Sequence record: MH719082.1
DNA length: 64,000 bases
Source: Escherichia phage vB_EcoM_IME392
Reading direction: 5' to 3' (one strand)
The notes under the pieces were generated by a model. It was not told the DNA's origin. It saw only the letters and a program-made list of their open reading frames with translations, and searched no databases. The position numbers and the translations under genes are program-made. Shown here piece by piece: positions 29,204 to 38,759 of this stretch; position 1 is the stretch's first letter; the number at the start of each line of letters is the position of its first letter.

Positions 29204-29349
29204 TTTTTACTCAAAAAGACTCTTAAAATTATGTTTTCGAGCTTTACAGGACGCCCCTGCGGTCTAAAGATAGGCCTCAAAAGGGTGTTTTTGTGAAGGT
29301 TGTCCGAGGCCCGTCCGTGACGTCTTCAATTATAAACAGGAGAAATACA

Positions 29350-29823
29350 ATGGGCGAGTTAGCTAAGCAAAACTTAAGTACTATTCAAAAGGGTCTTTCC
29401 TTAGTTAATTCGGAGGGCTCTGAATCCGTAAACGTTAAAGCCCTACAAGGTAAAGAAATAGGCTTACAGATTCTTCAGTTAGGTCTGGCAGAATCCGAGG
29501 CTAACCGAGTAGCAAAGCTTAACGGGATTATAGAGATCCTGGAAAAGAAAATATTCGATCCTGAGCGATTAGATAGACTTACCGAGAAGGAGCAGATCGA
29601 GAGATATCAGCTGGCCTTAGCTAGCGCATCTCAATCGGCAGCATTCGTTAAATCGACCATCGGCTCGATTAACTGGACAGCTATCGAAGTTTCTCTCTTA
29701 AGTCTGGCATCCGCCATTGAGACAGCCAACGAAGGTCAGTCTCCTAAGGATCGTAAAGACATGTCTACTATTGCCAATAACTTGATTAAGCAGTTGGCAG
29801 AAGGCATTGGTCCTAAGGGGTAA
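29350..29823 (+). CDS. Putative terminase small subunit
   Basis: 157-aa product (ATG 29350, RBS AGGAGAAAT), immediately upstream of the large terminase with a 3-nt gap; first gene of the plus-strand late block. Assigned by position and size only. Confidence 0.35.
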   Translation: MGELAKQNLSTIQKGLSLVNSEGSESVNVKALQGKEIGLQILQLGLAESEANRVAKLNGIIEILEKKIFDPERLDRLTEKEQIERYQLALASASQSAAFVKSTIGSINWTAIEVSLLSLASAIETANEGQSPKDRKDMSTIANNLIKQLAEGIGPKG

Positions 29824-29826
29824 GCC

Positions 29827-31653
29827 ATGGCTGATGCATTAGATGAGTTTATTGAAGCATGTGGCTCTAGACTCGAAGCTATGCATCAGTTAGCATTGAT
29901 GAGTGGCTACGAGGAGCGGGTTCCAACGATCCAAGAGTTCGTAATGGATCCATACTACCTGGGTAAGTCCTTGGTAGATGCTGATGGTGTCTGCTCGGTC
30001 TATCCTATTTGGATGGATGCTCTGGCTAAGATTTATCCTACTCCGTACACTTCACCAGCCGTAGAGATTTATCTCACTGGTGGTATCGGTCTTGGTAAGT
30101 CTACTGCTGCTAAGATTATCACTCTCTATGACTTGTGCAAATTGCTATGTCTTAGAGATCCTCGTGCACATTTTAAACTTCTGCCATCCACAGTAATTCG
30201 CTGGATGCTGATGAACGCCACTAAAGGTCTGTCCTACGATGTACTCTATGCAGAGATCATCGAGTGGATAGAGAATAGCCCATTCTTCAAAGGTAAGATG
30301 ACTGGTGGTAAGAATCCTCGTACTCTGTTCATTAAGAACGTAGACTTAGGATTCGGTTCTCGTGGTCAAGATGCTCTGGGTCAGGCTACCGTAGGTGCCA
30401 TCTTCTCAGAGATAAACGACATGACCGTAGTTCACGGTCAAGCAGAAGATAACTTTGATACCATCTATACTCGTATGAACTCTCGTTTCGGGGGTAAAGG
30501 GGTAGAGATGATTGGCCACTTGATTCTGGACTCTTCGAATAAGGGAAACCGTTCCTTTATCGATGTTCGTCTAGAGGATAAGGCCAAGAAAGGAATTCAC
30601 GACTATCTGTTATTCAGATACGCTCACTGGGAAGCTAAATGGCACCTCGGCGGGTATTCTGGGGAAATGTTCTACGTCTATGCTGGTGACCAGTATCGAG
30701 ATCCGTTTATCTTCGATGAGAATACTCTCAAGATTAAAGACGGTCTGGAGCCATCTCGTATTATCTCTGTACCTGTTGAACATAGACAGGAATTCGAGAC
30801 TAACATTGTTAAGTCTCTTAGGGATCTTGCAGGTGTGTCCACATTCGGTACATGGTCGTTCATCTCGTCCTACGAGGTGCTTAACCGAGCTGCTGATCAC
30901 ATTAACCCTACTGAATCTAACGTGGTGGTTCTGGACTTCTTCGATAAGGAGCAGACTCTTCACCAGACTATAGATATTCCTAGACTTGCCTTCCTTAATA
31001 AGAAGGATAGGTTCATCCATATTGACTTGGGTCTTAAGAACGACTCAACTGGTATAGCCTGTTCCTATCTCGATGGTTATGTTGACCAAGAGACTTACGA
31101 TCCTCTAACCAGTACGCGCATGGTTACTCGTGAACCTAAGATCGTTACTGAGTGGGCGTTAGAAATTACCTGCCAGCCTGGTCAGGAAGTTCCTATCTAC
31201 AAGATTAAGAACTTCTTAATAGAAGCATCTCAGCAGGGTTACCCAATTAAAATGGTAACCACCGATGGATACCAATCCACTAACTTACGTCAGGATTTAA
31301 CTCTGGCTGGGTTCGAGACTGCTCTGCTATCTGTTGACCGGACTAAAGATCCATATAACTACTTAAGGAACTCGATTCTCGAAGGTCGCAGCACTATTCC
31401 AGCTGTACCTAAGTTGATCAAAGAACTTAAGGAGCTAGAGGAAGGCGAAGGTAAATTCGACCATCCACCAGATGGCTCTAAGGATATCGCGGATGCCGTA
31501 TGTGGATCCCAATGGTCTGTTAAGGAGAATATCCATAAGATCGGGTCTACTGCTACGGTTGAAGATCTTCAAGTTGCACTCCACGAACTTAATAAGTCTA
31601 GGGATGCGAAGGAGATGTTTCGGAACATTATTAAGCAACGAGTGGGTGGCTAA
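29827..31653 (+). CDS. Terminase large subunit (ATPase plus nuclease)
   Basis: 608 aa. Walker A YLTGGIGLGKST near the N-terminus; size and position match gp17-type large terminases. Confidence 0.8.
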   Translation: MADALDEFIEACGSRLEAMHQLALMSGYEERVPTIQEFVMDPYYLGKSLVDADGVCSVYPIWMDALAKIYPTPYTSPAVEIYLTGGIGLGKSTAAKIITLYDLCKLLCLRDPRAHFKLLPSTVIRWMLMNATKGLSYDVLYAEIIEWIENSPFFKGKMTGGKNPRTLFIKNVDLGFGSRGQDALGQATVGAIFSEINDMTVVHGQAEDNFDTIYTRMNSRFGGKGVEMIGHLILDSSNKGNRSFIDVRLEDKAKKGIHDYLLFRYAHWEAKWHLGGYSGEMFYVYAGDQYRDPFIFDENTLKIKDGLEPSRIISVPVEHRQEFETNIVKSLRDLAGVSTFGTWSFISSYEVLNRAADHINPTESNVVVLDFFDKEQTLHQTIDIPRLAFLNKKDRFIHIDLGLKNDSTGIACSYLDGYVDQETYDPLTSTRMVTREPKIVTEWALEITCQPGQEVPIYKIKNFLIEASQQGYPIKMVTTDGYQSTNLRQDLTLAGFETALLSVDRTKDPYNYLRNSILEGRSTIPAVPKLIKELKELEEGEGKFDHPPDGSKDIADAVCGSQWSVKENIHKIGSTATVEDLQVALHELNKSRDAKEMFRNIIKQRVGG

Positions 31654-33231
31654 ATGGCAGAAAACGAAGTGGTCTCTAAGCAAGACTTAGATGACAAACC
31701 TGGTTCTCGCCAGGAGGTCTTAGCAAAGTTGCTAGACGATACCATCACTATGAAGCATAGTGATGGATTGTTGGGCACGGTACAGGCTTACCTTACCGAT
31801 CGCCTTACCAATATGGTAACCACTCGTGAAAAGTATTTCAACGAGCTGGCGAGATTTCGCTATAACTATATCACAGCTGGTATCTATGATATCATCTGCA
31901 ATGACGTGCTCACCAATACGGATGATGGTGGATTCGTCATAGAGATTGAAGGTGATGAAGAACTGACTCAGGAGGCGAACGAGCTAATTAAGGCTCTGGC
32001 CATCCCGGACTTCCTCACCTCCATTTTGCCGGAGTTACTGCACTATGGATCATACCCCTTAAGACCGTCACTGGAAGATGGCGAGGGATTGATTGGGTTG
32101 GTGGATGATTTTGATCCGCGTGATGTTATCGCAGTAACTGATTCATCCGGCCTTCCTATTTTCTTCTTCGTGAATTACACGACTAAAGATGCTGGGTACA
32201 TAGACTATGAGTCTCGTCAGAAGATGGAGTATCTAGGTCCTCAAGAGGTATCTTACCTCTCTCTGGATCAGAACTTCATTAAGCTGCCGATTCCCGATAA
32301 AGTCACTGCCCAGATGAAGCGTAAAATTACGGAAGAGTTGGGTGAAGACGAACCTATGGCTAAGCTCATGGGTAAGTCGATTAAAATTCGTTCGTCCTTG
32401 TCATTCTTATGGGGATCTCTGGATAAGCTCAAGAATATCTTGATGCTGGATAAGGTTAACGTCTATAAGACGCTGGCTAACCTCCTGAGTCCGTCTGTAA
32501 TCGGTGTTCCTCTCCCGAATAATAACGACATTAAGCAGATGAAGTCTATAGTCAACGACTATGACCAAATCATTAACAGTACTAACCTGTTTGCTGCTGA
32601 TATGAGTAACCTCCAGTTTAACCTGCAGGATATTGTATCAGTTAAAGTCGTTCCTATCTCTGGAGATCGGTCTGTACCTCAGATCCTGGATACTGGTAAG
32701 TCGGATAACACTATCGATCCAGAGAAGATCAGATCCGAGTTAGAGGTTCTGTTACAGTCCTATGGTATTCCTCTGGAATTATTCCTCGGAAGCCTTTCCT
32801 CTAAGGATAACCTAAGGACGAATATTCGTTATGCTAAGAAGATCAAGCGCATCGGTAAGAGCCTGTGTAAATGGCTGCAATATCTGCTGCTGTTACACTT
32901 CGGCTTTAAATACGAGAATCTGGATCTCGAGTTATCTGAAATTAAGGTAACACTGAAGTCCTCTATTAACGTAGATGCTCTTGAGAATATGGAGACTCAA
33001 GATCTTCTTATCACAAGTATTAATGGTATGACTGGGATGCTGGATTCTCTGAAGAACGAGATCGAGAACTCCAATTATACTATTGATAACGATGCTCTGC
33101 TTAAGGTAGTCGCGGATACTCTCGCAGACATAGGCTCTCCGTTCCACGGAGTAATTAAGCTTAAGTCCGAGGTCCCTATAACCCAGCAGACTCCTCCTGC
33201 TCCCCCAGAAGATGGTGAAGAGAATGAATAA
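31654..33231 (+). CDS. Portal protein (putative)
   Basis: 525 aa, start overlapping the terminase stop (TAAATG), highly acidic C-terminus; assigned by the terminase-portal-scaffold-capsid gene order. Confidence 0.55.
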   Translation: MAENEVVSKQDLDDKPGSRQEVLAKLLDDTITMKHSDGLLGTVQAYLTDRLTNMVTTREKYFNELARFRYNYITAGIYDIICNDVLTNTDDGGFVIEIEGDEELTQEANELIKALAIPDFLTSILPELLHYGSYPLRPSLEDGEGLIGLVDDFDPRDVIAVTDSSGLPIFFFVNYTTKDAGYIDYESRQKMEYLGPQEVSYLSLDQNFIKLPIPDKVTAQMKRKITEELGEDEPMAKLMGKSIKIRSSLSFLWGSLDKLKNILMLDKVNVYKTLANLLSPSVIGVPLPNNNDIKQMKSIVNDYDQIINSTNLFAADMSNLQFNLQDIVSVKVVPISGDRSVPQILDTGKSDNTIDPEKIRSELEVLLQSYGIPLELFLGSLSSKDNLRTNIRYAKKIKRIGKSLCKWLQYLLLLHFGFKYENLDLELSEIKVTLKSSINVDALENMETQDLLITSINGMTGMLDSLKNEIENSNYTIDNDALLKVVADTLADIGSPFHGVIKLKSEVPITQQTPPAPPEDGEENE

Positions 33232-33478
33232 ATCTGAGCTGCTTATGCAAGCTGTTGATGAGTCTGCTGCTACTACGTACACGCTGACTCGCCTTGCAAA
33301 AGATAACAGCGATACCGTAAATGGTGTGCTGGATAACTTCCTCCGTGACGTGCAGATCCACGATGCTGGCGCTACTGCATCTACCGATGACAATGGCGAT
33401 CTCACAGTAACTACTCGCCTCGGCGATGGTCTGACTTATATCATGGAAAAGTACGGCTTCAGCTACACTAAGTCGTAA
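33224..33478 (+). CDS. Hypothetical small head-module protein
   Basis: ATG at 33224 overlapping the portal stop; 84 aa. Confidence 0.4.
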   Translation: MNKSELLMQAVDESAATTYTLTRLAKDNSDTVNGVLDNFLRDVQIHDAGATASTDDNGDLTVTTRLGDGLTYIMEKYGFSYTKS

Positions 33479-33490
33479 TAAGGAACCGCT

Positions 33491-34927
33491 ATGGAAGTCG
33501 TAGACTCAGTCAATGCTGTTGACTTAGTTGAGGTATCCGAGGCAGTCCAATTCGACGTAGTTGAAAACGCATCCGAAGTTGATGGAAAATACGTCCTAGC
33601 GAAAGCTGTAGGTCCTGCGTTCTTTCCTGGTCAAACCTCTGGTAATAAAGTTTATTACCCCGAGGCGCTCTGGGAAAAAGTGCTGGCCGATGGGGACGTT
33701 AATTCCCGGCTGCAAAACCGTACCATGTTTGGTACGATTGGTCACGACATTGAGGATATCAATGACGAGGTCATCCGTCGAGGCGAACTGTCTCATATCG
33801 TAACTAAACTTTTTGTAGATGATGCTGGTGTAGGTCGAGCTGAGTATCTGGTGGTCAATACCCCGACTGGTCAGATTCTCAACACGCTACTCCGAGCAGG
33901 CTCTAAGCTGCGGGTGTCTACAAAGGCTAAGGGAGCGTTGTCCCATCCAGATGAGAATGGGGTCAAAACTCTCAGAAGCTACTATCTTAAAAGGATAGAC
34001 TTCGTACTTACCCCAGGATTCGAGCAGGCACTGCCCGAAGTAGCAGAGTCTCTGAACAAAATCCGTAACCAACTACCAGATCCCGTCGAGGAGAGTAAAA
34101 TGGAACAGAACGAATTCATTGAGCACCTTAAGACTGAGAACGCTCAGCTGAAGGCTCAGGTTGATGAATCCAAGCAGGCCAATACGGTCCTGAAAACTCA
34201 GCTGGATGAAGCGAAGACCCAACTGGCTACCGCTACCGCCCAGCTGGCTGAAGTTAACGAGTCCCTGGCTAAATACCAGACTCTGGGTACCTTCGAGCAG
34301 GTAGACGAAGCACTGACTAAAGGTGCGGAAACTATCACCACTCTGAAAGAGTCTCTGAACGAGGCTATCGAAGAGTCTGCTCACGACGTCCACGATCTGG
34401 AAGTCGTAGAAGAAGCTCTGGAGAAATACAAAGAGCTGGGTACTCCTGAAGAGATCTCCGAAGCTATCGCCACCCTGAATGGCTTGATCGAAGAGAAAGA
34501 GACCCAGGTCTGCGAATCTCTGGCCAAGAAATTCAAACGCAGCCCGAGCATGATTAAAACCATGCAGACTGCGCTGGGTGGCCTGGATAAAGTCGAAGAA
34601 GCTCTGGTAGCTGAAGCTGCCGAACTGGGCATCAAAATCGACGAATCCGACGATGGCGAAGATAAAGGCGACGGTAAAGACGATAAGGGTGATGACAAAT
34701 CCGACAAGAAAGATGGTGGGGATGACAAAGGCGACGATGCCGATGAATCCAAGAAAACTCCGTCTAAAGTCGAAGAGTCCCTGAATCGTGTAAATCGCCT
34801 GGGATCTCTGATGTCTACCAAACAGATCCGCACCAATCTGATTAATACCCAGAAAGTTGACGAGTCTGCTGGTAAAACTGCCGACGCGCCTCAATCTCGT
34901 GCCGGTAAACTGATGTCTCGTCGATAA
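33491..34927 (+). CDS. Prohead scaffold protein with N-terminal protease-like domain (putative protease-scaffold fusion)
   Basis: 478 aa. N-terminal globular part of about 190 aa, then a long heptad-rich coiled-coil (LKAQVDESKQANTVLKTQLDEAKTQLATATAQLAEV) and an acidic/lysine-rich tail (DGEDKGDGKDDKGDDKSDKKDGGDDKGDD); directly upstream of the major capsid gene. Confidence 0.5.
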   Translation: MEVVDSVNAVDLVEVSEAVQFDVVENASEVDGKYVLAKAVGPAFFPGQTSGNKVYYPEALWEKVLADGDVNSRLQNRTMFGTIGHDIEDINDEVIRRGELSHIVTKLFVDDAGVGRAEYLVVNTPTGQILNTLLRAGSKLRVSTKAKGALSHPDENGVKTLRSYYLKRIDFVLTPGFEQALPEVAESLNKIRNQLPDPVEESKMEQNEFIEHLKTENAQLKAQVDESKQANTVLKTQLDEAKTQLATATAQLAEVNESLAKYQTLGTFEQVDEALTKGAETITTLKESLNEAIEESAHDVHDLEVVEEALEKYKELGTPEEISEAIATLNGLIEEKETQVCESLAKKFKRSPSMIKTMQTALGGLDKVEEALVAEAAELGIKIDESDDGEDKGDGKDDKGDDKSDKKDGGDDKGDDADESKKTPSKVEESLNRVNRLGSLMSTKQIRTNLINTQKVDESAGKTADAPQSRAGKLMSRR

Positions 34928-34982: not shown

Positions 34983-36410
34983 ATGACTAAGCAGAATATC
35001 GTGCTGTCTAACGTCGACGAGGCCTCCGCAGATGTAATGGCTAACGCCTACTTCGACAAATACAGCGAGCAAATGGATGCATACGCATCTAACTCCATCC
35101 TGGCGCGTGTTAACGAAAGCCTGTCTCCGTTCGAAATGATCGCAGTCGGCCAGACTCTGGACCAGTACCAGGGTTACCAGAAGTACGTCAACGAATCCAT
35201 GAGTGGCCTGGCATCTATGGGTGCTATTCCGGCAATCGCTCTGGACGTTATTACCGCATCTGTCGGTAACTCAATCCTGCCTCTGATCTGCTCTATCCAG
35301 CCGATCCCTGAAGAGCATGGTATTGTTTACTACCGTCAGATCAAAGCATCCCAGACCTCCGGCGGTTACAACGCAGGCGACGTGATCCGTGATCCGCTGT
35401 CTCGTGATAATCCTGGCGAAGGTACCCTGGGTGCCCAGCGTCGTCAGCAGGTAATCGGCACCGGTAACGGCACCGAAACTAACTTCGCTGCTACTCTGGA
35501 ACTGTATCCTGTTCGTCCGAACATGGTCTTCGTCAACATCCCTGGTGTTGGTAATGGTCAGGACGACGGTAACGGTAAGATCCTGGGCTTCGGCTTCGAT
35601 GGTACCATCAACTACAAAACTGGCGCGATCACTATCGCAGCTAAAGCAGCTGTTCCTAACACTGCTCAGGTTGCTGTTCGCTTCGACGTTGATGTTGATC
35701 TGCTGGATAACCTGGATAAAATCCAGGCTGGTCTGATCTCCAAAGATATCCGTGCGGAAATCTGGACCCTGGCTGCTGATATCGGCACCTTCGCTAACTT
35801 CGCCTTCCAGAATCGCTTCGGCCGTTCTGCAGAAGACGAAGTCGCATCCGACCTGTCCAACGAAATCACTAACGTCCTGAACGTTCGTGCTATCAAACAG
35901 ATCGCTGCGATGGCTATCGGAGAAACTATCTGGGATCAGACTCCTCCGGCTGGTGTTTCCTACGCTGAGCACAAACTGACTCTGGTTGATACCTTTGCTC
36001 GTGCTGAATCCGTGTTGCACAACAACGCTGGTGTAGGCTCTGTGAACCGTATCATCTGCGGTCGCTCTGCTGCTGCGGTATTCCGTGGTATGCCTGAGTT
36101 CACCCCAGCAGGTCAGTCTGTCGGTACTTCCGTATCTCTGTACGGCTTCTACGACGGCGTGCCGGTAATTCGTGCAACTGGTGTTATCGAAGATAACGCT
36201 GCGTATCTGATCTGCAACCCGGACGGTTACTTCAACTGCCCGCTGGCATACTCTCCGTTCATGCCGCTGATCGTTACCGATACCATCCAGAACCCGAACA
36301 ACCCGTTCCGTGGTACTAAAGCTGCTGGCGTTTGGGCGGGTATGACCCAGCTGAACCCGAACCTGGTAACCAAACTGACCTTCAAACTGGCTAACTTCTC
36401 TGGTAGCTAA
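34983..36410 (+). CDS. Major capsid protein
   Basis: 475 aa, AAGGA RBS. Strongly biased E. coli-type high-expression codon usage (ctg, cgt, ggt, aac, ccg), follows the scaffold gene, and is followed by a strong terminator. Confidence 0.7.
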   Translation: MTKQNIVLSNVDEASADVMANAYFDKYSEQMDAYASNSILARVNESLSPFEMIAVGQTLDQYQGYQKYVNESMSGLASMGAIPAIALDVITASVGNSILPLICSIQPIPEEHGIVYYRQIKASQTSGGYNAGDVIRDPLSRDNPGEGTLGAQRRQQVIGTGNGTETNFAATLELYPVRPNMVFVNIPGVGNGQDDGNGKILGFGFDGTINYKTGAITIAAKAAVPNTAQVAVRFDVDVDLLDNLDKIQAGLISKDIRAEIWTLAADIGTFANFAFQNRFGRSAEDEVASDLSNEITNVLNVRAIKQIAAMAIGETIWDQTPPAGVSYAEHKLTLVDTFARAESVLHNNAGVGSVNRIICGRSAAAVFRGMPEFTPAGQSVGTSVSLYGFYDGVPVIRATGVIEDNAAYLICNPDGYFNCPLAYSPFMPLIVTDTIQNPNNPFRGTKAAGVWAGMTQLNPNLVTKLTFKLANFSGS

Positions 36411-36559: not shown

Positions 36560-37276
36560 ATGTATAAGGTAACTAATAAGTCCGAGTACACTGTTCAAGC
36601 TAACCTATCCGCAGACGGTCCGGTAAGCATCGCTCCTAAAGAGAGTCTGACCATTCGTAACCCGTCTCGCGATTTCGTTAAAGAGATCGGTCGCGTATCT
36701 AACCTGCTTTCCTATACGGAAGTAAGTGGTGATGCGTCTGGTGATCAGACCGATAAAGACGAAGTGGTCGTAGCTGAGCCAGAACATCCGAACTCGCTGG
36801 ACAAAGAGCCAGGTACTGTTATTCAGGGTACTGCTCTGACCAAAGAAGAAATTAACACTGCTGCTGAGCGCTCTGATCATAAGATCAATGACAAAGTGCC
36901 CGACACTGCGGTAGTTGGCGCTAACCAGGATGCTGCTGCACCTAAAACTGGTGGCGAGTCTAACGTCGCTCCTAAAGAAGTGACTGACGCAGAATTAAAT
37001 AACGCTGGCGCTGGCGCTGCTGCCGGTGGTGAAGATCAGGGTACTGGTAATGCGGAAGATGCTTCTGCAGATAAATCCGACTCTGGCATCCGTCAGTTTA
37101 CCGGTGAAGAACCTACCAAATCTGAAGATGACGGCGAAGGTGAGCAGTACACTCGCGAAGAGCTGGAATCTACTCACTGGGCTACCGTTAAGAGCATCGC
37201 GGAATCTAACGGTATTGACTACACCAACAAAGGTGAAGCGATCACCGCTATTCTGGATGCTAAAGTAACCAAGTAA
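36560..37276 (+). CDS. Acidic head-associated protein (possible decoration or outer capsid protein)
   Basis: 238 aa, RBS AAAGAGGTAG. High-expression codon usage like the capsid gene; Ala/Gly/Asp/Glu-rich central region. Confidence 0.4.
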   Translation: MYKVTNKSEYTVQANLSADGPVSIAPKESLTIRNPSRDFVKEIGRVSNLLSYTEVSGDASGDQTDKDEVVVAEPEHPNSLDKEPGTVIQGTALTKEEINTAAERSDHKINDKVPDTAVVGANQDAAAPKTGGESNVAPKEVTDAELNNAGAGAAAGGEDQGTGNAEDASADKSDSGIRQFTGEEPTKSEDDGEGEQYTREELESTHWATVKSIAESNGIDYTNKGEAITAILDAKVTK

Positions 37277-37309: not shown

Positions 37310-37846
37310 ATGGATATTCGCAGTTTAGTTCTCCAGGGAACAGATACTCTCAGGAAGAATCAATATCCTACTGGTAAAGTAGGCTCGTTCGATTTTAACT
37401 ATGTTATGAGAAATAAACAGCTCATCGTTAAATCTCAGGCACGCCCTTCCAGTGGTGAATCGTATTCGGCATATCAGTCCCAGATTGTATTCTCTGGAGT
37501 AGGTTATTCTGATGTTCCGTCTCCTGATTTCCCTCTGACGTACAATTCTCCTAACGGGAAGATTTATCTTCAGAAGCCTACCACTCGGAATACTGTCCAG
37601 ATCAGATGTTCTTGTAAGGACGATTATTTCATGTGGCAGTACCCTAATAAGTCTAAGGGTGCTCTCCTGGGTAGATTTAAGCCGTATGTACGTAAAACAA
37701 CGGATCGTCCTCCTAGAAACCCAGGCAACGTACCAGGAATGTGTAAACATGCTCTGGCTCTCGTGAAGAATCTGTTTTCTATGGGAGTTCTCCAGCCTGA
37801 TTCTCAGGTACAAGAGTACTTATCAAGACCAACTAGGAGTATATAA
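37310..37846 (+). CDS. Hypothetical virion protein
   Basis: 178-aa ORF in the head/neck module. Confidence 0.45.
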   Translation: MDIRSLVLQGTDTLRKNQYPTGKVGSFDFNYVMRNKQLIVKSQARPSSGESYSAYQSQIVFSGVGYSDVPSPDFPLTYNSPNGKIYLQKPTTRNTVQIRCSCKDDYFMWQYPNKSKGALLGRFKPYVRKTTDRPPRNPGNVPGMCKHALALVKNLFSMGVLQPDSQVQEYLSRPTRSI

Positions 37847-38133
37847 TGGTAACTGCAGCAGAAGTTCTTTCGTCTGTTGACGAAGCCACTTATACGATCA
37901 AGCGCATCAAACAGATTCGTGACGGTCGTCTGGTGATTCGTCAGAAGCGTCAGTACGCTGGTCCGGCACCTAAGCCAGGATTTAAGCGTAATCCTCAGAC
38001 TGGCAACATCGAGAAGATGACAGCTACTGAGCACCGTAAGCGTTCTAAAGCTGTCCGTAAGGTACAGCGTAAGGCCACGGTTAAGCTGAAACGCGCTAAA
38101 TCAATTCGTCGCAGAGAGGCTATGGGGTTATGA
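37846..38133 (+). CDS. Small highly basic protein
   Basis: 95 aa; C-terminal half is Lys/Arg-rich (HRKRSKAVRKVQRKATVKLKRAKSIRRRE). Confidence 0.45.
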   Translation: MVTAAEVLSSVDEATYTIKRIKQIRDGRLVIRQKRQYAGPAPKPGFKRNPQTGNIEKMTATEHRKRSKAVRKVQRKATVKLKRAKSIRRREAMGL

Positions 38134-38759
38134 GTCTGAGCTATGATGAACTCGTTGAATCGTTCCTGTTAGAATCAGGGCAATTTATTCTGGATAGTCT
38201 GGATGATACTGCTCTTACGCAGGACCGAGTGGAGCTTATCATAGCTAAAGAGCTAGCCACCTACTCCAGATATAAACCTAATCTGGTTACTGGAGCTTTG
38301 AATCTCTGGAATAACCGAAGATTTACTGGTAAGGATGAGCACGGTAATCCTGAGCCCATCCCTATCGTAATTCACCGACTATTCGTTAATGGTGGTTTTA
38401 CTCGCTTGATCACCAACAATAGATTCGGTACCATCTCCCAGAACTACTGGCGCTTCGATAACGGAGTGTTCAATATGTATATGGAAGATGGGCAGTACTT
38501 GTGTGAGTATGCAGTAGCGCACACCTATAATAAAGAAACTAAGTCAATCGACTCCTTAGACTTAACAGCAACTACGTTCATGAGTATGGTTCATGGTAAG
38601 ATGATGCAAGTCTTAGGCAGGTCCCGACGAGCCTTCCAGATCAGTGATAGTCCTATACTGATGGATGGTGATGCACTAATAGCGGACGGCCAACAGATGT
38701 ATGACCAGGCTATGGAAGATCTTAAAACCCAGAGCGATTACATGTTGGCTTCTATGTAA
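38130..38759 (+). CDS. Hypothetical head-tail connector-region protein
   Basis: 209-aa ORF, start overlapping the upstream stop (ATGA). Confidence 0.45.
   Translation: MSLSYDELVESFLLESGQFILDSLDDTALTQDRVELIIAKELATYSRYKPNLVTGALNLWNNRRFTGKDEHGNPEPIPIVIHRLFVNGGFTRLITNNRFGTISQNYWRFDNGVFNMYMEDGQYLCEYAVAHTYNKETKSIDSLDLTATTFMSMVHGKMMQVLGRSRRAFQISDSPILMDGDALIADGQQMYDQAMEDLKTQSDYMLASM

Follow-up and report, generated by a model that had tools for sequence, protein, structure and literature searches.

In phage T4 the prohead protease and the capsid scaffold are encoded by separate genes, and the question raised by the locus described here is whether both functions can reside in a single reading frame. 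The locus lies in a stretch of 64,000 nucleotides from Escherichia phage vB_EcoM_IME392 (MH719082.1; hereafter the window), in which an open reading frame (ORF) of 478 codons (positions 33491-34927, plus strand) precedes the capsid gene. A preliminary sequence-only reading of this DNA had proposed that the ORF might encode a fusion of protease and scaffold, and had stated correctly that the two are separate in T4, as is the case for genes 21 and 22 of the T4-type phage RB32. We consider it quite likely that the ORF is a T4-like capsid-maturation module held in one frame, with a gp21-type protease at the N-terminus, a scaffold at the C-terminus and a scaffold-only product nested within the same gene.

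A conserved gene upstream of the capsid gene

The ORF list confirms a frame that opens with ATG and encodes 478 amino acids (aa) before the stop codon. The capsid gene (34983-36410) is located directly downstream and its product matches Pfam Gp23 with 26.5 bits, above the cut-off, so that the gene pair exists as initially described. The 478-aa protein is 97.9% identical to WBU87756.1 of Escherichia phage EP_H11 (111 kb), a close relative of the window; this protein is labelled 'hypothetical protein', as is every other one across the stretch of the EP_H11 record that was examined, and the annotation consequently gives no functional clue. Homologs were taken from an exhaustive search of representative sequences (a word-indexed search gave only 4 proteins), which yielded 1938 cluster representatives at E<=0.001. 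Because 261 of them match at E<1e-30, nearly all with lengths of 430-550 aa, the ORF is far beyond what chance would produce. Sixty-one diverse members were aligned for the family-wide comparisons reported below. The gene is carried, among others, by phages RP13, YerA41, Carin-5, phiLo, RHph_TM30, LIS04 and EP_H11, which have been proposed to form an 'RP13-like' group with hypermodified thymidine (PMC12686479).

The N-terminal domain resembles T4 gp21

The globular N-terminal region, previously estimated at about 190 aa, is a discrete domain whose last residue is Glu186. Its AlphaFold model is confident (predicted local distance difference test, pLDDT, 88.9), and when this model was submitted to Foldseek, gp21 was the sole match (E 7e-10). 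The same protein was also the sole PDB match (T4 gp21, 5jbl; E 8.6e-5) for a family profile of the N-terminal 200 residues; the domain was cut out for this comparison since the whole-protein profile was swamped by designed helical proteins. The 478-aa protein itself matches PHROG 207, 'head maturation protease', with an E-value of 9.5e-16, and Pfam Peptidase_S77 (PF03420) is matched at E<=0.01 by 39 of the 61 relatives (best E 1.4e-11). Searches with the whole ORF additionally returned single-sequence PDB matches to a cyclic nucleotide-gated (CNG) channel and ribosomal L7a (E>0.3), as well as Pfam matches to Sec8_N, Prominin, PspA and similar families below their cut-offs; the former were set aside as noise from low complexity and coiled coils, the latter as coiled-coil artefacts.

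Three residues, His85, Ser143 and Asp170, are invariant in all 61 family sequences and align with His85, Ser140 and Asp168, respectively, of the native T4-type gp21 from phage RB32. The native protein was used for this purpose because, in the crystallised chain, the residues matching His85 and Ser143 are both Ala. A His/Ser/Asp triad is found in gp21-type enzymes (PMC5694885). On the grounds of fold and active site, the domain is assigned to the gp21-type capsid-maturation proteases, with catalysis predicted.

Among the protease families that the sequence-only reading had put forward for residues 1-200 (S78, U9 and U35), U9, under which MEROPS formerly listed the gp21 family, proved to be the right one, and S78 and U35 did not: the S78/U35 (HK97-type) and ClpP/S49-type proteases gave neither Pfam nor PHROG matches and were absent from the significant fold matches. 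S80 was matched by just one of the 61 relatives scanned. A six-frame search of the window with the family profile revealed no second protease, and in the PHROG-annotated relative Ab1-TPeters the annotation of bases 1-104486 names no further protease or scaffold. A protease fold is thus present in residues 1-200 and no separate protease gene was found, both of which agree with the proposed fusion.

A helical C-terminal half, fused or split

In the full-length AlphaFold2 (AF2) model, the protease domain is followed by a low-confidence linker (residues 176-204), a 58-residue helix (206-263), five more helices up to residue 379, a disordered D/K/G-rich region (380-442) and two short helices that end the C-terminus. 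Two 'L.KY..LGT.E(E/Q)(I/V).EA(L/I)' units are found in the helical body, at residues 259-275 and 310-326. The long coiled coil and charged repetitive tail initially ascribed to this half therefore stand in part: the helices do extend to residue 379 and the charged string quoted at the time, DKGDGKDDKGDDKSDKKDGGDDKGDD, occupies residues 391-416, but the string belongs to a low-complexity spacer rather than a repeat, and a basic tail (427-478) follows it. At the DNA level, Tandem Repeats Finder (TRF) reports a unit of 12 nt repeated 2.4 times at 34655-34683 (score 37), which rules out a true tandem repeat. The net charge is -27 over residues 196-395 and +7 over residues 431-478. Comparably acidic stretches occur in the relatives (median net charge -7), and the basic C-terminal tail has a median net charge of +4 across the family. 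In the scaffold half the density of [LIV]xE reaches 7.4 per 100 aa, equal to that of T4-type gp22, and the gene order portal-small ORF-478-aa ORF-capsid parallels the T4-type order 20-67-68-21-22-23 (RB32). From these features we infer that the C-terminal half is a capsid scaffold.

Fusion is the rule within the clade: all 77 recognisable loci on viral contigs extend 104-506 residues past the protease domain, the shortest being ended by the end of its contig. In Vibrio phages 150E35-1 and Va2, conversely, the protease gene ends and a separate gene for a 'coil containing protein' starts, with the break aligning to the interval from Glu186 to Met204 of the 478-aa protein. Compared with residues 204-478 by composition-adjusted BLASTP, the separate Vibrio proteins give E-values of 1e-6 and 2e-8, and the similarity runs via the 'Y..LG(T/S)PEEI.EAL' unit that is present twice in the 478-aa protein. 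Judged by these alignments, the C-terminal half is homologous to stand-alone genes in that position. A similar order is seen in YerA41, where a protease of 252 aa is followed by a helical protein of 401 aa and then by the capsid protein, each of the three bearing the label 'structural protein'; in the split relatives the separate gene at the scaffold position encodes 298-401 aa.

The two genes of Vibrio phage 150E35-1 (3388-5772) are in the same frame, parted by one stop codon and 21 nt, and fused and split forms consequently differ by one codon. The protease of this phage also carries an extra N-terminal extension of ~290 aa.

A probable nested start at Met204

Within the linker, Met204 is preserved in at least 90% of the sequences in the 61-member alignment and is preceded by a Shine-Dalgarno (SD) sequence. 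The predicted pairing of this SD to the 16S rRNA tail amounts to -8.9 kcal/mol; of the 29 real starts in the block (median -6.1), 26 pair more weakly, and among 186 internal in-frame ATGs the site comes second. An SD-like sequence ahead of a Met near the same position is found in five phage relatives, and in 58 of the 63 distinct viral loci the PG motif of the protease is followed by a Met at a distance of 12-60 residues. Across the family, these candidates have a median SD energy of -5.8 kcal/mol; the corresponding values are -5.3 for the annotated beginnings of the ORFs and -2.1 for a control set of 409 other internal ATGs (p 3e-11). A perfect AAGGAGG even precedes the candidate Met in several distant members. 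Because Glu-Glu codons can mimic an SD, the test was repeated on 59 loci (58 viral ones and the window), this time with all codon positions of these scaffolds as the control. Under this stricter control the median drops to -1.7 kcal/mol (n=14970; p 2e-15), a value of -5.8 is attained at just 7.5% of positions, and the candidate start lies, at the median, within the top 3% of its own locus. Folding of the 60 nt around the candidate start is also weaker than elsewhere (-5.3 versus -8.8 kcal/mol; p 3e-13). Finally, the alignment puts at Met204, or immediately beside it, both the Met with which the stand-alone Va2 scaffold begins and an internal Met from each of two phage relatives with the fused form. 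Taken as sequence signals, these features suggest that Met204 probably starts a scaffold-only product of 275 aa.

In the literature searched, neither the fusion nor an internal start was found to have been described explicitly before. The label 'prohead core scaffolding and protease protein' of Rhizobium phages was considered as such a description and rejected, being the T4 name for stand-alone gp21.

Cleavage motifs and predicted substrates

Proteases of the gp21 type recognise L/I-x-E, where they cleave behind the Glu, and also trim their own C-termini (PMC5694885). Residues 181-478 of the protein contain 22 [LIV]xE sites, where 7.7 +/- 2.3 are expected from composition, and 10 [LIV]xES sites, where 0.52 +/- 0.70 are expected (a value reached in 0 of 20000 shuffles). 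By comparison, 32 further late proteins encoded in the window contain [LIV]xES at a density of 0.12 per 100 aa, and the twelve matches outside the 478-aa ORF include two in capsid residues 1-72 and one in the small ORF upstream. The enrichment is family-wide: the 61 members possess 1111 [LIVM]xE sites against 635 expected, and Ser occupies the P1' position after 23% of the motif glutamates compared with 5.6% of other glutamates (~4-fold). Cleavage after Glu by the S77-like domain is predicted from this pattern.

At the domain boundary, Glu186 is invariant, its P3 residue is L, V or I in all members, and P1' is Ser in 42 of 61; the site aligns with the C-terminal ITE↓S of gp21 (the arrow marks the cut). 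Glu186 is accordingly read as the predicted site of self-release. Two further predicted sites, VEE429↓S and VDE458↓S, are located in the C-terminal tail, the layout of which is kept in relatives: an acidic segment, [VI]xE↓S, a basic segment, a second [VI]xE↓S and a terminal S-R-A-x-R-L-M-like motif. In 56 of the 61 members, [LIVM]xE[SAGN] occurs within the last 50 residues, and the terminal peptide has a median length of 19 residues. The basic tail may therefore represent a capsid-binding end that is clipped off.

The capsid protein is a second predicted substrate, with sites at VDE13↓A, RVNE45↓S and YVNE71↓S. Those at ~13 and ~45 are kept in the nearer clade, and an E-S/A pair at ~71 is widely kept, just ahead of the LG.IP..A.DVIT core. 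In T4, gp23 is shortened by 65 residues at its N-terminus (PMC9958956). The small 84-aa ORF, which overlaps the end of the portal gene and has syntenic small ORFs in relatives, returned no match in family searches; it may encode a component of the prohead core, since it occupies the place that gp67/gp68 have in T4. T4-type gp67 ends in a D/E/K-rich tail that resembles the spacer of the 478-aa ORF. Further downstream, L-x-E↓S occurs twice, with overlap, within residues 8-16 (DELVE↓S, FLLE↓S) of a 209-aa protein (38130-38759, plus strand), which might be another N-terminally processed head protein. The cleavage-motif signature, together with the likely internal start and the conserved basic tail, goes beyond what the sequence-only reading had noticed.

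Proposed mechanism and alternative explanations

According to the scheme that we favour, the 478-aa protein would be a serine protease of the gp21 type (His85/Ser143/Asp170) joined to a scaffold by a short linker, and translation from ATG 34100, with its own AGGAG, would supply the 275-aa scaffold alone, probably as the more abundant product. The second product would set a low ratio of protease to scaffold, and the fusion would assure the protease of a place in the procapsid core. The portal would be the place where the acidic, helical scaffold body and the capsid protein assemble together, and the shell would probably be contacted by the basic C-terminal tail. Once the shell had closed, the protease would cut after Glu in (V/L/I)-x-E↓S, release itself at Glu186, break up the scaffold, through cuts at about ten sites, into peptides of a size that can exit, clip the C-terminal tail at Glu429 and/or Glu458 and remove the capsid propeptide at Glu45 and/or Glu71, thereby clearing the head for DNA packaging.

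Several observations weigh against this scheme and lend themselves to other explanations. The query scores only 14.2 bits against Pfam Peptidase_S77 (E 0.03, residues 52-159), below the 27-bit cut-off, and the domain is, by this sequence model, a divergent branch of S77 rather than a core member. A Ser101-His102 pair ('SHIVT', codons 33791-33796, plus strand) is invariant in 61 of 61 sequences and has no counterpart in T4-type gp21; it could be a structural or a family-specific active-site element. From the sub-threshold Pfam score one could imagine that the domain is a catalytically dead relic, retained for structural reasons in a phage that matures without proteolysis. We regard this as highly improbable, given that His, Ser and Asp are invariant at the gp21 positions in such diverse sequences and that the proteins expected to be substrates are precisely those with a strong enrichment of the cleavage motif. 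Furthermore, the window covers 64 kb of a genome of ~111 kb, and the absence of another protease beyond it was judged by the annotation of a relative. Searches of PHROGs, Pfam and NCBIfam with the scaffold half, for their part, brought up no named scaffold family, and BLASTP of residues 204-478 against RB32 gp22 gave no match. The scaffold role consequently rests on position, composition, structure and split orthologs, and residues 204-478 are a functional analogue of gp22, not a demonstrated homologue. This leaves room for a view in which the C-terminal 290 residues are a targeting or core appendage that delivers the protease, the 71-residue capsid propeptide acting as the scaffold as in HK97 and T5; the predicted cleavable extension of the capsid protein would fit, and proteases of phiKZ-like phages do shed a C-terminal part (PMC5694885). 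However, in T4 a 65-residue propeptide exists alongside the gp22 scaffold, the region in question is long, helical and acidic with a gp22-like density of cleavage sites and forms a gene of its own in split relatives, a dedicated strong internal start would argue for high copy number, and the annotation of Ab1-TPeters offers no other scaffold candidate. We consequently hold a mere appendage to be improbable.

The nested start is the element for which an alternative deserves most weight. The ORF might yield a single product, with protease and scaffold equimolar as proposed for P2 gpO, and Met204 and its AGGAG might be kept for protein reasons, GAGGAG being plain Glu-Glu codons in an acidic linker. 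In the same direction, Ab1-TPeters is gapped at the Met204 column of an 8-sequence alignment, its nearest Met being at 218 with a moderate SD (-5.6), and in about one third of the family loci the SD at the first Met past the protease domain is weak. Nevertheless, the candidate SD stands far above the other codon positions of the same Glu-rich scaffolds, perfect versions of it recur in distant members, the local mRNA is relaxed as at true starts, and in the split relatives a real start codon is located between Glu186 and Met204. A single-product fusion is therefore unlikely in our view, though less so than the two preceding alternatives, and a fusion with a nested scaffold-only product remains the explanation that we prefer.

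Antisense frames and neighbouring genes

Two long ORFs on the opposite strand had been dismissed as low-complexity shadows of the charged region, and this is supported for both. Against EP_H11, the codon changes in the sense frame number 47 synonymous and 10 non-synonymous, and third positions account for 45 of the 58 differences. The 273-aa antisense frame would have undergone 8 synonymous and 35 non-synonymous changes, set against 33 and 10, respectively, in the sense frame; it is a shadow of the sense gene. For the 151-aa ORF this test cannot discriminate, its wobble positions coinciding with those of the sense frame; it is open over more than 50% of its length in 18% of 66 relatives and is very likely a shadow too. 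Both antisense frames are open over more than half of the region in only ~20% of these relatives, and with their TTG starts devoid of an SD and their biased composition they were rejected as genes. Coordinates of all features are compiled in Table 1.

Table 1. Coordinates in the window of the 478-codon ORF, its predicted parts and associated features
Feature	Position	Strand	Basis
Full-length protease-scaffold ORF (proposed)	33491..34927	+	ORF list; identity to EP_H11; homologs mostly 430-550 aa
gp21/S77-type serine protease domain, predicted (residues ~20-186)	33548..34048	+	
Codon of His85, predicted catalytic	33743..33745	+	invariant in 61; aligns with gp21 His85
Codon of Ser143, predicted catalytic	33917..33919	+	invariant; aligns with gp21 Ser140
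Codon of Asp170, predicted third triad member	33998..34000	+	invariant; aligns with gp21 Asp168
Predicted self-release site Val184-Ala-Glu186↓Ser187	34040..34051	+	domain boundary
Internal Shine-Dalgarno AGGAG, 6 nt before the Met204 codon	34089..34093	+	sequence read; -8.9 kcal/mol
Predicted nested in-frame scaffold-only ORF (Met204-Arg478, 275 aa)	34100..34927	+	conservation, SD, weak folding
Helical scaffold body, predicted (helix 206-263, five helices to 379)	34106..34627	+	AF2 secondary structure; Vibrio homology
Disordered acidic/lysine-rich D/K/G spacer (residues 380-426)	34628..34768	+	pLDDT ~41, no secondary structure
Conserved basic C-terminal tail (427-478), terminal SRAGKLMSRR motif	34769..34924	+	C-terminal comparison, 40 relatives
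Capsid N-terminal propeptide (residues 1-71), predicted substrate	34983..35195	+	motif scan
Small 84-aa ORF, AVDE↓S at residues 11-14	33224..33478	+	annotated in EP_H11
Antisense 273-aa ORF, shadow	34073..34894	-	substitution pattern; TTG without SD; F/L-rich
Antisense 151-aa ORF, very likely shadow	34381..34836	-	28% Ser, low complexity; TTG without SD

The late block runs in one direction, in the order small protein, large terminase (29827-31653, matched by PHROG 2), putative portal, small ORF, 478-aa ORF and capsid. The putative portal, a 525-aa protein (31654-33231), is named from its position and has no family match. The ORF of the small protein upstream of the terminase (29293-29823, plus strand) begins with GTG at 29293, and an ATG at 29350 is preceded by an AGGAG-like SD (-7.4 kcal/mol) and agrees with the 474-nt coding sequence annotated in EP_H11; 29350 is probably the true start. 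Right after the capsid gene, a 238-aa protein (36560-37276, plus strand) displays a long acidic, Ala/Gly-rich low-complexity middle. Since the Ab1-TPeters protein at the same position is annotated as 'structural protein with Ig domain', it is possibly a capsid decoration protein. The head-gene block also includes a 178-aa protein (37310-37846, plus strand; PHROG 18980) with a weak match to a SWIM zinc finger (E 0.01); a 'SWIM-type zinc finger protein' is similarly placed in Vibrio phage Va2, an odd neighbour for structural genes. A 2025 paper placed EP_H11 among the proposed 'RP13-like' myoviruses and described a DNA polymerase fused to a uracil-DNA glycosylase (UDG)-like domain (PMC12686479); the minus-strand block at 1 to ~28 kb of the window probably holds those replication and modification genes.

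Comparison with known systems

Every element of the proposed mechanism is already known elsewhere. The closest counterpart of the protease is T4 gp21 (MEROPS S77, PF03420), which is encoded separately from gp22 in T4, whereas here one ORF with a probable internal start would serve for both. The gene is located between the putative portal and a Gp23-type capsid gene, as in T4; at 17% identity to gp21, the domain differs in the N-terminal 20-30 residues, and the P1' position of its predicted sites is strongly biased towards Ser. Distant relatives of gp21 with a His/Ser/Asp triad are the S80 enzymes phiKZ gp175 and SPN3US gp245, which cut after Glu at (A/S/G)-x-E and have their own C-terminal part removed ~200 residues in (PMC5694885). 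Their C-terminal part is not known to act as a scaffold, and their P3 is a small residue, in contrast to V/L/I here.

With respect to organisation, the nearest phage parallels are lambda C/Nu3, Mu I/Z and P2 gpO, in which protease and scaffold likewise share one gene. The proteases of Mu and P2 belong to fold classes apart from the gp21/assemblin-like one. In lambda and Mu, translation also begins within the frame, at an internal start that has a Shine-Dalgarno sequence of its own, and yields the scaffold (PMC8508860; PMC4378225), and the lambda protease is ClpP-like rather than gp21/assemblin-like (PMC8508860). All three are small temperate phages with different capsid proteins.

In herpesviruses, UL26/UL26.5 similarly combines the assemblin protease, fused to the scaffold, with an in-frame scaffold-only product, and cleavage occurs at Ala↓Ser. 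The short product originates from a separate transcript and not from an internal ribosome-binding site, and the herpesvirus scaffold shares no sequence similarity with the one described here. The scaffold transcript exceeds that of the protease-scaffold fusion ~10-fold (PMC11565193), and the triad is Ser-His-His (PMC4498786), versus His/Ser/Asp here. The protease at the N-terminal and the scaffold at the C-terminal side of a single frame is the layout of the lambda, Mu and herpesvirus nested genes and is found here as well; since it is known from those systems, the organisation is neat but unsurprising, and the finding does not overturn current understanding. It does, however, propose a function for a gene labelled 'hypothetical protein' in EP_H11, and a head-maturation module for a little-studied group of phages with hypermodified DNA. 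It also yields explicit predictions, namely the catalytic residues, about a dozen cleavage sites, a mature capsid N-terminus at Ser46 or Ser72, and a hidden 275-aa product that current annotation leaves out.

More broadly, a gp21-type protease that is separate in the textbook case of T4 appears to be fused to a scaffold in hundreds of lineages, with a nested-translation signature resembling the herpesvirus arrangement, which bears on the evolution of capsid-assembly modules. Among the nested-gene systems, lambda, Mu and herpesviruses, only the last have the protease fold in common with the family studied here. It is conceivable, although we would not bet on it, that the 'RP13-like' family keeps the complete herpesvirus module, comprising an N-terminal assemblin/gp21 protease, an excess scaffold-only product, a release site and a cut that removes the tail. 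In that case, tailed phages and herpesviruses would have inherited the UL26/UL26.5 strategy from a common ancestor instead of converging on it, and T4, with its genes 21 and 22 apart, would represent a derived, split state.

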